From Gammaproteobacteria bacterium (lineage in GTDB: Bacteria > Pseudomonadota > Gammaproteobacteria > JBCCGL01), in the NCBI GenBank assembly GCA_965277715.1, contig OZ255836.1, positions 3,168,001 through 3,232,000 on the forward strand: a DNA stretch of 64,000 nt. Direction: 5' to 3'. Below are positions 21,661 through 32,432 of this stretch, in pieces. Numbering within the stretch: the first letter of the stretch is position 1; each line of letters begins with the position of its first letter. A program made the position numbers and the translations under genes. The notes beneath the pieces were generated by a model. That model did not search any database. It saw only the letters and a list, made by a program, of their open reading frames with translations, and had not been told where the DNA came from.

Positions 21661-21678
21661 GCAAGCAAGGGGGTCAGC

Positions 21679-21779
21679 AAGGGGGTCAGGCTTATTATTC
21701 ACCATACAACGACTAATACGGATAAAAACAGTGATTTCCAGCAATGAAGTATAGAAAATAACTGCCTTGACCCCTTTTT
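21679..21779. repeat. ~100-bp MITE/REPIN-like element, copy 1 (ends AAGGGGGTCAGGC...GCCTTGACCCCTTT)
   Basis: Imperfect terminal inverted repeats around a non-coding core; near-identical copies at 21795-21895 and 32290-32390. Confidence 0.8.
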
Positions 21780-21794
21780 CCTTATGTAAATAGC

Positions 21795-21895
21795 AAGGGG
21801 GTCAGGCTTATTATTCACCATACAACGACTAATACGGATAAAAACAGTGATTTCCAGCAATGAAGTATAGAAAATAACTGCCTTGACCCCTTTTT
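21795..21895. repeat. ~100-bp MITE/REPIN-like element, copy 2 (tandem)
   Basis: Matches copy 1; its right end abuts the truncated orphan cassette. Confidence 0.8.
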
Positions 21896-21899
21896 CCTT

Positions 21900-22951
21900 A
21901 TGTCATAAATCGCTACTTCGTTGTCGTCTATATCCCGGTTTAACAGCCGTGTGTTCGAGTTTTCTGCATCACCGAGAACGACCTCACCCTCGCCCACTGT
22001 TCCCAGGGTTTTGGTTTTGCTGTGTTGATTGTCATTGCTGTAGTCCAGGCTGACGGTTTGTCCTAGCCCCACACTCGCCGAGGTTGAGCGCGCTTCTACT
22101 GTGTTGTTCAGGCTGCCCACTTCCAGGGTATTGGTAACTAGCGTCAGTTGTTGGTTGTCATTACCGTCTTCATCCACGGCGGCTATCGTTGCCCCTCGCA
22201 ATGTCGTCGCTTCCGCCACAGTGATGTCGACTGTTTCACCCAGCAATTGGGTGTCTACGGTGTTTTTGATCACCGATCGCGCCCTGGCGTTGCTTAGCCC
22301 CGCTGAGTTGATGCCACTGCTGCTAAACCCGGCACTGAACCCCTGGGATTGACTGCGGTCTTTGGTGCTGTTTTGCACCGAGGCCACATGCAGGGTTTGG
22401 GTGTTCAGGCTCAGGGTGTCGCCCGCCGCTACATCCGCCCCTTTAATCTGCGTGGTATCTCTTGTGGTGATCGTGATGTTATTGGCCAACAGGGAGGCGT
22501 TGGTTTGCGTGATCTCACGGCGGCTGCTACTGGCGCTGTCACTGCTCAGGTTGACACCACCCCCACTGCCCCCGTACAGATCGATCGAGATATTGACGTT
22601 TCTATGCTCGGTGCTGGTTTCCCGCGTTGAAAGATCCTGGGAGGCGAGGATGTTTAAGTCCTGACTGTCGATGGTGATACCTTCACCGGCTTGCAGGTGG
22701 CTACCCTGTATCGTGGCGGTGTTGTTGGCATTGATGGTAATCGTATTACCCGCACTCAACGTCGAGGCCACTGAACGCTGCTGGGCTTCACTCAGTTGTT
22801 CTTCCAGCACATCCAGATCAATTTCAAGGCCCGCGTTAAAGCCGTAGGTGCCGCTGCTCGCCGCTGCCTTGGCCAAATGTGCGGTGGTGCCGACACACAG
22901 GCAAGCCAATAGAACAATCAACAGGTTATGACAAACAAGAGAAAGACGCAT
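21900..22951 (-). pseudogene. Truncated orphan CdiA-CT cassette 4 (leader plus constant hemagglutinin-repeat region; toxin tip and immunity gene lost)
   Basis: Near-identical to cdiA ~34420-35390; homology stops at ...NEVAIYDI where the repeat element begins, and the ORF reads through the repeat to 21815. Confidence 0.85.
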
Positions 22952-31247: not shown

Positions 31248-31493
31248 AAACAGAGTGTAACGATTGGTGAGTATTTGGCGAGTAGTTTTTCTTTTCGGTA
31301 GGAATTTACAAATATCGTTAGCGCGACCAGTGGGCCAAGTTTATCAACCGATCAATATAATACTTGCCCCTAATTTTTCTTTTGAATGCAATTAAATATA
31401 CCTGACCCCTTTTGTTAAGGAAGTGCCATTCTGCCTTGACCTCTTTTTTTTAATAGTGAATAACTGGCCTGACCCCTTTTTGGACCCCTTTTT

Positions 31494-32241
31494 GATTATG
31501 TGACGCTCATCAATGATATCGATGGAGGGCGAGTATTGGATGTAGTGAAAGTGAAAGATCGCACCCAGGCAGCGTGTGAGGAGGCGTTGGAGGTTGCGCT
31601 GACGGATAACCAGCGAGAACAGGTGAAAGCTGTCGCTATTGATAGGTGGCCTGCGTTCATTAATGCCGTTGAGGTAAAACTGTCAGACAGTGCGATTGTT
31701 CACGACCGTTTTCCTATTAGCCAACACCTGAATAAGGCGGTGGATCAGGTCCGTCGTGACGAACATAGAGACCTTTTGTCACAGGGTGATACTCGATTGA
31801 AAAAGAGTCGTTATCACTGGTTAAAAAATGAAGAAAATTTGTCTAACAAAGCAGCCGAGCACTTTGAGTCACTCAAGCATGATCAGTTATTGACAGCCCG
31901 AGCCTGGGCGATAAAAGAACTGTTTCGTGATTTTTGGACGTATAAGACAGCGGGTTGGGCAAAGCGTTTCTTTAGCGCATGGTATGCGTGGGCAATTCGG
32001 TGCCGATTGGACAGCATAAAGAAAGTGGCCAAGATGATAAAAACGCACATGCCGAACATATTGACATGGTTTAAGCACACAATAAGTAATGCCGTATCAG
32101 AGGGTTTGAATTCAAAAATTCAGACAGTCAAATCGAATGCAAGAGGGTTTCGTTCGTTTGAAAGTTACCGGCGGAGTATTTTGTTTTACTGCGGAAAGCT
32201 GGATAGGGAACCAGTGGCTTCACAATAATCGGGGAAGAACC
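31494..32241 (+). mobile_element. ISL3-family remnant (5'-truncated transposase 31500-32228 plus right end)
   Basis: VAIDRWPAF, IVHDRFPISQHLNKAVDQVRR, LKKSRYHWL, SNAVSEGLNSKIQ..ARGFRSF; end ...GAAGAACC at 32241; left part missing at a GACCCCTTTTT motif. Confidence 0.88.
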
Positions 32242-32289
32242 ATATTAGATGGATCCTTAACAACGCCATCCAAATGATCTGTAACAAGC

Positions 32290-32390
32290 AAGGGGGGCAG
32301 GCTTATTATTCACCATACAACGACTAATACGGATAAAAACAGTGATTTCCAGCAAGAAGTATAGGAAATAACTGCCTTGACCCCTTTTTT
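32290..32390. repeat. ~100-bp MITE/REPIN-like element, copy 3
   Basis: Same core as 21679-21779 with a few differences; same orientation. Confidence 0.8.
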
Positions 32391-32432
32391 CTCTTTTTTC
32401 TATGACCCCTTTTTTTTATAGCTATACTTCAT

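Follow-up and report, generated by a model that had tools for sequence, protein, structure and literature searches.

The window analysed here, 64,000 nucleotides of a gammaproteobacterial genome (assembly GCA_965277715.1, contig OZ255836.1, positions 3,168,001 to 3,232,000), contains a contact-dependent inhibition (CDI) system on its minus strand, with two full pairs of an orphan toxin and a small gene as well as two truncated orphans. The orphans lie in an 11-kb array in which a short motif, TGACCCC followed by a T tract, occurs again and again. An earlier note on this DNA took the motif for the mark of a trans-acting RAYT-like enzyme (a tyrosine transposase associated with repetitive extragenic palindromes, REPs) that shuffles the toxin cassettes. 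We suggest instead that the motif is probably the outer tip of terminal repeats of the TIRtron/TIRYT type, that this tip is also the landing pad of an insertion sequence of the IS4 family, and that what lies between the toxin cassettes are the scars of mobile DNA.

The main CDI system (32433..55272, minus strand) consists of a CdiB-type transporter with ShlB and POTRA domains (53602-55272), a CdiA-like exoprotein of 6961 residues with haemagglutinin repeats (Fil_haemagg_2; 32732-53617) and immunity gene 0 (32433-32735). On the same strand follow orphan toxin 1 (28353-31247) with immunity gene 1 (28042-28356), and orphan toxin 2 (24156-27242) with immunity gene 2 (23863-24156). Orphan 3 is a stub (27491..27756, minus strand) in which a start codon and 186 nt of cdiA-like sequence are joined to a pyrimidine tail outside the next repeat tip (type R1, see below), while orphan toxin 4 (21900..22951, minus strand; Fil_haemagg_2) is cut before the toxin domain and is 96% identical to the main gene at 34419-35392. 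Across 1.0-1.7 kb the orphans and the main gene are 94-98% identical. The assignment to CDI is based on the TpsB transporter, the giant haemagglutinin-repeat exoprotein, a small gene at each toxin end and orphans retaining upstream cdiA sequence, all of which are found. The immunity role of the small genes downstream of the toxin ends is presumed, and three of them have no match to a Pfam family.

The motif TGACCCCTT is found 16 times in the window, always on the plus strand and between 21768 and 32403, where shuffling predicts 0.47 copies; none of 100 shuffled windows reaches 16, and the maximum is 3. The bare heptamer TGACCCC also occurs reversed at three positions of the array (21670, 21682 and 21798), so that 16 of the 19 exact copies share one orientation. 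Outside the 11 kb there are only two copies, at 12786 and 63514, and neither has a T tract. Variants can be read directly in the sequence at 23127, 27946, 31437 and 31482. All these sites agree with the earlier note, whose sixteen plus-strand coordinates are exact, whose reversed copies and variants are present, and whose claim that the T-tract motif is confined to the array holds. Altogether, 23 tip-like sites lie in the 11 kb: five of type R4, five R1, three R2, two L2 (plus one degenerate), four adjoining an IS4 end and four short tandem tip copies.

A family of terminal-repeat units, 30-40 nt long, has TGACCCC(T)n as its outermost 11-13 nt. Read on the opposite strand the motif becomes (A)nGGGGTCAGG, and its T side is the outer side of the unit. 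The units follow the scheme (A)4+GGGGTCAGG, 0-3 nt, TTATT(C)AC, and an alignment of 11 ends extends this inward from the A tract to (A)nGGGGTCAGG, 0-3 nt, TTATT(C)AC(Y)AT.CAAC. The likeness spans about 38 nt and is clear in three subtypes (L2/R2 and R1) of the four in the window. L2 and R2 are the two ends of a mini-element, the others are single ends; GGGGTCAG is present in every subtype except R2, which has GGGGTCAA. Repeat finding also detects 32-nt arms, 81% complementary, between the left end of the mini-element and several motif sites. An exact R1 21-mer has no match in the contigs of the genome collection, nor has an R1/L2 pattern in metagenome contigs. The GTAG tag of GTAG REPs and RAYT REPINs was not seen at the units, and the mini-element ends pair only across about 85 nt. 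Tn3-type 38-bp ends start with GGGG and have TAAG at the inner end. As a source of the units they were rejected: the TAAG-like inner end is weak and present in one subtype only, and the 5-bp duplication is absent.

The mini-element is 105 nt long, two-ended, and present in three plus-strand copies whose ends pair as inverted repeats. Copy 1 (21676..21780) has a reversed motif as its left tip and the motif at 21768 as its right tip, and is identical to copy 2 (21792..21896; motifs 21798, reversed, and 21884), its 116-nt tandem duplicate. Copy 3 (32287-32392; motif 32378) lies 10.5 kb from the others, has a degenerate left tip and, T-run length aside, shows two substitutions and one deletion when compared with copy 2; with a second tip copy beside it (motif 32403) it extends over 32287..32417. 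The folds of two mini-element copies are no better than those of shuffled sequences (z -0.9 and -0.7). The mini-element has the inverted ends and small size of a classical MITE (a miniature transposable element with inverted repeats), but no target-site duplication is seen at the three copies.

Short tandem copies of the tip recur at the units: at 21664-21687, 23118-23137, 31483-31494 and 32393-32417, 12, 20, 12 and 25 nt apart. The first of these is a 12-nt tandem duplication of the mini-element left tip on the minus strand (21664..21687; reversed motifs 21670 and 21682). A like tip duplication is found at the complete TIRtron of a Pirellulaceae metagenome-assembled genome (MAG; locus L261, 1487-1520). 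Such copies may be a footprint of end processing.

Ten of the 16 exact motif copies belong to five copies of one head with two units each, so the 16 copies do not represent 16 events. Along the gene strand this foreign head consists of an R1 half element, an R4 unit, a leader of about 155 nt, a start codon and a lipoprotein-like signal of 27 codons. It is followed by sequence like the main gene, whose first position is common to the four orphans (about 35390 in main-gene coordinates); the head/cdiA junctions at 22873, 27162, 27676 and 31167 represent one event copied four times. The closest motif is 230-245 nt away from this junction, which therefore is a breakpoint without a motif mark. The heads, given in plus-strand coordinates, are located as follows. 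The head at orphan 4 (22874..23209) comprises the foreign 5' part, which includes the start codon and the lipoprotein-like signal, then the R4 end unit (about 23079-23117, motif 23107), a tip duplicate of 20 nt (variant 23127) and, last, the R1 half element (23138-23209, motif 23197). A fifth, partial head (23221..23386) has R4 motif 23306 and an R1 half element with motif 23376. The heads at orphan 2 (27163..27480; R4 motif 27398, R1 motif 27468), orphan 3 (27677..27991; R4 motif 27912, R1 motif 27979) and orphan 1 (31168..31494; R4 motif 31403, R1 motif 31470) complete the set. Those at orphans 3 and 1 also include an IS4 remnant each (C and D below), and that at orphan 1 a 12-nt tip duplicate (variant 31482).

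Like the orphan cdiA-CT/cdiI arrays described in the consulted part of a review (PMC7662968), the locus has toxin-immunity pairs behind the main gene, a conserved cdiA stretch enabling homologous recombination, and remnants of transposases or insertion sequences between the pairs. According to the same part of that paper, orphan modules usually lack initiation sites, whereas here a start codon, a signal and a promoter-like site are supplied to each orphan by the foreign head, so that these orphans might be made on their own. The promoter-like site, TTCAAA-18-TATTAT, lies on the gene strand within the R4 unit of each head (5 copies, 9/12 matches). The signal is a hydrophobic stretch ending in L-L-A-C, with its own ATG and an in-frame fusion to the cdiA-like sequence; the head stretches with these own-start features are 22874-23100, 27163-27395, 27677-27910 and 31168-31400.

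A second enzyme, overlooked in the earlier note, is tied to the same tips: a DDE transposase of the IS4 subgroup, whose remnants are found at four of them. The coding fragment at 23612-23746 corresponds to the last 45 residues of a transposase of 462 residues (P0002), with 98% identity to its C-terminal end. P0002 belongs to the IS4 family according to NCBIfam NF033592 (216 bits against a cutoff of 115), and in the protein database ten of its member sequences are on the contig of this genome. Relatives were collected from 79 loci in many Proteobacteria; both ends could be located in 61, and full flanks on both sides are available in 45. The ends are GAATGGCAC...GTGCCATTC, 1453-1584 bp apart (61/79 loci), and an exact 11-bp duplication is present in 23 of the 45 copies with full flanks. 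At both ends of the 61 copies the flanks have the consensus GGGTCWGACCCCTTT. Read outward from either end they are GGGTC[T/A]GACCCC(T)TTT, with C at position 5 in 45/47 right and 43/51 left flanks. As the outward consensus is the same from both ends, the preferred target is a palindrome, AAAAG/GGGTCWGACCC/CTTTT.

In the window the right end of this element is present in four exact copies, all in one direction, and the left end in none. With right ends only, no IS4 duplication is readable there. Each of the four remnants lies exactly 11 nt inside a tip. Their 11-nt flanks, ATACCTGACCC, TGGCCTGACCC and, twice, TGCCTTGACCT, are identical with the final 11 nt of the R4, R1 and R2 tips, except for one mismatch between the R2-type flank and the R2 tip. 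The resemblance of the flanks to the R1, R4 and R2 units breaks off precisely 11 nt inward of the G/GGG boundary, where the insertion point is predicted. Remnant A (29 nt), followed by ATACCTGACCC and CTTTT, occupies 23565..23609 on the plus strand (motif 23599, R4-type tip). Fragment B is the 3' part of the element, with its right end reaching 23812, followed by TGGCCTGACCC and a T run (23612..23829, plus strand; motif 23818, R1-type tip). Remnants C (27923-27940) and D (31414-31431) are short end pieces, C with flank TGCCTTGACCT at variant 27946 and D with its flank at variant 31437. By these alignments, the preferred target of the IS4-subgroup element is exactly the tip, with an 11-bp duplication.

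This agrees with what the available part of De Palmenaer et al. 2008 (PMC2266710) gives for the IS4 subgroup: ends of the type -AATR, direct repeats of 10-13 bp, a length of 1400-1650 bp and a "spectacular" specificity for target arms. Shared with our element are the single DDE transposase of about 460 residues, the GAATG start, the 11-bp duplication and the conserved target arms; the window differs in that it retains right-end remnants only. The palindromic target consensus of this clade is a count of the present analysis and is absent from that part of the paper. Insertion sequences of five families, IS4 included, are known to target REPs (Tobes and Pareja 2006, PMC1525189, in the part at hand). 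IS1397/ISKpn1, IS621, ISPpu9/10 and ISRm22, the last from the IS4 family, likewise use a fixed position in a small repeat. Here, in contrast to the IS1397-type cases, the target is a TIRtron-type tip and not a GTAG REP. The two papers on TIRYT (PMC3733652, PMC6006769), as far as they were available, do not mention IS4, and no further paper on IS4 and TIRtron tips was among those listed in our literature searches.

The link of the tip to transposases of the Y1/HUH type was suggested by its consensus and was then examined in two ways that are independent of the published repeat data. Repeats flanking the RAYT-like TIRYT genes share GGGGWSAS (Di Nocera, De Gregorio and Rocco 2013, PMC3733652), which is also given at TIRYT repeats by Quentin et al. 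2018 (PMC6006769; TnpA-REP subclass 2.1), both according to the parts of these papers at hand, and GGGGTCAG fits this consensus. Both partners meet in a Pseudomonas genome with the IS4 clade, where AAAAGGGGACAGATTTATTTT stands on either side of a Y1_Tnp gene and the right repeat is interrupted by an IS4 end. Among relatives of this gene (77 loci, 59 of them at least 2000 nt long), the upstream repeat is present in 49/59 and the downstream inverted repeat in 47/59. A predominates at four positions outside GGGG, and the A/T tract is therefore part of the repeat. An IS4-type end abuts such a tip in 10 of the 77 loci.

The 18-base pattern of the window itself, AAAGGGGTCAGGCNNNTTATT, is found at 26 loci of the genome collection, against a rough chance expectation of about 17. 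At four of these loci a TIRYT homologue lies nearby (30-43% identity, E 1e-13 to 4e-21). At three of these four, in Planctomycetes, the pattern lies within about 55 nt of the gene and faces it; at the fourth (L253, a Methylococcales MAG) it lies about 115 nt beyond the end of the TIRYT gene, facing away. The Pirellulaceae MAG has a complete element of 735 bp, with inverted repeats on both sides and the duplicated tip. On four further contigs AAAGGGGTCAGGCNNNTTATT occurs as hairpin pairs of about 45 nt. Hairpins of this length, two facing tips of the form (A)nGGGG[A/T]CAG...CTG[T/A]CCCC(T)n, were observed in Pseudomonas brassicacearum (L173, about 300-345) and at L251, L257, L271 and L274, the hosts being Pseudomonas, Planctomycetes and a Rickettsiales MAG. 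By their sequence they look like minimal two-end derivatives of TIRtrons.

Thus, the units share with TIRtron/TIRYT repeats the tip consensus and the occurrence as solo, paired and clustered units, and AAAGGGGTCAGGCNNNTTATT flanks TIRYT genes in Planctomycetes, with a sister form, GGGGACAGATTTATTTT, in Pseudomonas. They differ from TIRtrons in having no transposase gene beside them and in being mostly single right ends, of four subtypes, within a toxin array. Repeats of the GGGGTCAGGC type may already be contained in the repeat lists of the TIRYT papers. For the repeats themselves a RAYT-like enzyme is plausible, and to this extent the proposal of the earlier note survives, with the GGGGWSAS consensus and the 4/26 TIRYT loci on its side; deletion, capture and stacking of cassettes by such an enzyme gain no support. 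Its statement that the window encodes no such enzyme is borne out as well: none of the 29 open reading frames scanned has a Y1_Tnp domain by Pfam, and the best tblastn match has E 0.53.

Five unrelated sequences, which the earlier note described as cut within a few bases of the T-tract side, do all begin or end beside a motif. A 3' fragment of a dehydrogenase of the isocitrate/isopropylmalate type (21377..21659, minus strand; Iso_dh positions 262-346 of 348) loses its likeness to contigs of other strains at 21659/21660, 7 nt from a reversed motif. The likeness of orphan 4 to its paralogues starts at 21900, 4 nt past a T5 run, and the IS4 fragment (residues 418-462 of 462) at 23612, 2 nt past T4. 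Orphan 3 starts at 27491, after 10 further pyrimidines behind the motif. An ISL3 element without its left third (31495..32243, plus strand; NCBIfam ISL3 positions 142-369 of 370 from about 31495, Pfam DDE_Tnp_ISL3 16-239 of 240) follows directly behind the 12-nt tip copy. The stops of the immunity genes are 30, 63 and 45 nt from a motif start, where the earlier note gives about 25-60 bp. The tips border on their T side on the interior of IS4 at two depths, the interior of ISL3, the interior of an R1 element, two toxin genes and a multi-copy fragment of 172 nt, and further on the 3' regions of the three immunity genes.

The motif does not mark essentially every breakpoint, as had been claimed. 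Besides the head/cdiA junctions, the right end of ISL3 (about 32243, by eye in the sequence) and the right edge of the 172-nt fragment (23564/23565) are not motif-adjacent. This fragment (23393..23564, no strand assigned) belongs to an element without family assignment and has loose contig ends on both sides; it matches no Rfam family and no Pfam family significantly (best DUF6127, E 0.027). Adjacent deletions made by IS4 were considered as the source of the T-side junctions and rejected. Such a deletion should have left an IS4 end behind, but no such end is present at these junctions, which IS4 chemistry therefore does not explain.

For comparison with other strains, contigs from four sponge-metagenome runs (X1, X3, X4 and X6) of four studies were mapped on 20500-26100. 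X6 is identical to the window on unique parts and may be the source sample. The contigs of X1, X3 and X4 run through the dehydrogenase fragment to 21659 and are unlike the window from there on. In X4 the 30 loose letters beyond 21659 keep the dehydrogenase frame open in a hand translation, i.e., the gene is whole there and is cut here 7 nt from the mini-element tip. In all four runs, loose ends continue upstream of 23612 into the intact IS4 sequence. Contigs of X1 and X3 follow the window through the IS4 end and TGGCCTGACCCCTTTT as far as 23828, where they split into three different continuations per run; at several places in those genomes the R1 unit therefore ends right after TTTT. In X4, moreover, the interior next to an R4 unit is a different one (loose end 23079), as is the left flank of a mini-element (21798). 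The fragment 23393-23564 occurs on many contigs of all four runs with different continuations on both sides, and its summed depth is far above that of its flanks, although depth ratios on repeats are not copy numbers. The region 23866-26100 has no cover in X1 and X3 and one low-depth bin in X4, which is not read as absence. Three contig joints were not counted as variants, since with sides no longer than 24-30 nt they can be accounted for by paralogous heads or by other copies. By TypA the nearest relatives have at most 81% identity.

Among the neighbouring genes, just upstream of the array (17633-21138), an AAA+ ATPase of 332 aa is followed by a subtilase-family protein of 835 aa, with the stop of the first overlapping the start of the second; the two could be a defence-type gene pair. 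A Fic-domain protein of 409 aa (55632-56861) is directly upstream of the cdiB-type gene. The toxin end of orphan 1 (28353-28700) weakly resembles Gln_amidase, a family of papain-fold glutamine deamidases, with a match below the cut-off (E 9e-4).

We suggest the following history for the array. The repeat units would be moved, or have formerly been moved, in trans by an enzyme of the TIRYT type encoded elsewhere, and could have inserted within or next to IS4, ISL3, the dehydrogenase gene and toxin genes. Deletions that followed, either by recombination between units of the same direction or as adjacent deletions made by a transposase, could then have produced the junctions of a tip with arbitrary DNA and the truncated genes. 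As in other CDI orphan arrays, the long stretches of cdiA-like homology would have served to stack and swap the toxin cassettes. For this last step homologous recombination is sufficient, as 1.0-1.7 kb of homology is shared and the 5' junction is a single, unmarked one. What is new here is the TIRtron link, the clade-wide target consensus of IS4 and the anatomy of the array.

Several observations weigh against this explanation. A Y1/HUH gene is absent from the window, and no GGGGWSAS pairs were seen around 12 Y1 loci of five other genomes with the IS4 clade. None of the 120 listed of 7706 TIRYT-like proteins is on the contig of this genome, which is not read as absence of such a gene. The accessible parts of PMC3733652 and PMC6006769 report no cutting or movement of the repeats by TIRYT at the bench. 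The R4 subtype resembles the other subtypes only weakly beyond the tip. No target duplication or direct repeat flanks the mini-element at any of its three copies, two of which go back to one tandem event, and its mobility is read from contigs of other strains with different flanks, without a clean empty site. The one-way orientation of the motif (16/19) is explained in large part by duplication, but not wholly, and the deletion mechanism behind the truncated genes is what we infer from their junctions. In the five genomes holding the IS4 clade, finally, the tip is rare (0-9 copies each). The target preference is thus intrinsic to the IS4 transposase and need not point to TIRtron repeats.

This last point leads to the strongest alternative, in which the motif is the target or duplication of IS4 only, the units are MITEs mobilised by a DDE transposase, from relatives of IS4 or of another kind, or relics of such elements, and the likeness to TIRtrons is due to convergence. 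It would fit that 61 copies share one flank consensus although the tip is rare in their host genomes, that four IS4 end remnants lie in the array, and that no Y1 gene came to light for this genome in the searches described above. However, the ends of the mini-element are inverted; taken as a direct repeat only 3 of 11 positions agree, so they are not IS4 duplications. Furthermore, the inner parts of the units are unlike the IS4 end (about 11/31 positions alike), the tip together with the inner TTATT stands at Y1 genes in two unrelated bacterial groups, and IS4 chemistry leaves the arbitrary DNA on the T side unexplained. We consider convergence unlikely for these reasons, while giving it some weight.

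The proposal of the earlier note, in which an HUH/Y1 enzyme of the RAYT-like kind acts in trans to delete, capture and stack the toxin-immunity cassettes, much like an integron without an integrase, appears improbable to us. It draws on a tip of the TIRYT type, on at least seven different sequences abutting the T side, on a tip within 15-50 nt after each immunity gene and on the one-way majority orientation, as expected of strand-specific enzymes acting on single strands. Against this, the 5' sides of the cassettes are one shared, unmarked junction followed by 1-1.7 kb of homology to the main gene, so that stacking needs no site-specific enzyme, and a single duplicated unit accounts for 10 of the 16 motif copies. 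The enzyme gene is not in the window, and a tip next to arbitrary DNA is typical of any transposon end. In a bolder form, a TIRYT-type HUH enzyme would cut single-stranded DNA at the A/T-tract boundary and rejoin it elsewhere, each toxin-immunity cassette between two tips of the same direction would be a unit open to excision, loss or capture, and IS4 would be a parasite of the site. If true, this would be an HUH-based analogue of the integron, but we hold it for a long shot.

That the motif is a selected functional signal (a terminator, part of a promoter or an RNA element), with its placement at junctions secondary, is very improbable: the promoter-like site inside the R4 unit of each head and the T runs after the motif would suit it, yet none of 10 terminator-like sites overlaps a motif, which rejects a terminator, their number is below the shuffle mean, there is no Rfam match, five of six folded stretches are no more stable than shuffles (z +0.55 to -0.94), and the same tip stands at transposase genes in other phyla. 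In the sixth folded stretch, which is an R1 half element, a stem of 7 bp forms next to the tip (z -2.3; 5/200 shuffles fold as well).

If the motif is indeed the tip of TIRtron-type repeats, the new mechanism of cassette shuffling that was proposed for this array is replaced by familiar layers, i.e., TIRtron-type repeats, an IS4 element homing on their tips and recombination between cdiA repeats. The IS4 clade is present in many Proteobacteria and has a sharp palindromic target, which in Pseudomonas is the tip of a TIRYT transposon, and this offers a cheap handle on both partners. The array itself would provide many natural junctions of a tip with new DNA, which could be compared with a TIRYT cleavage site determined in vitro.

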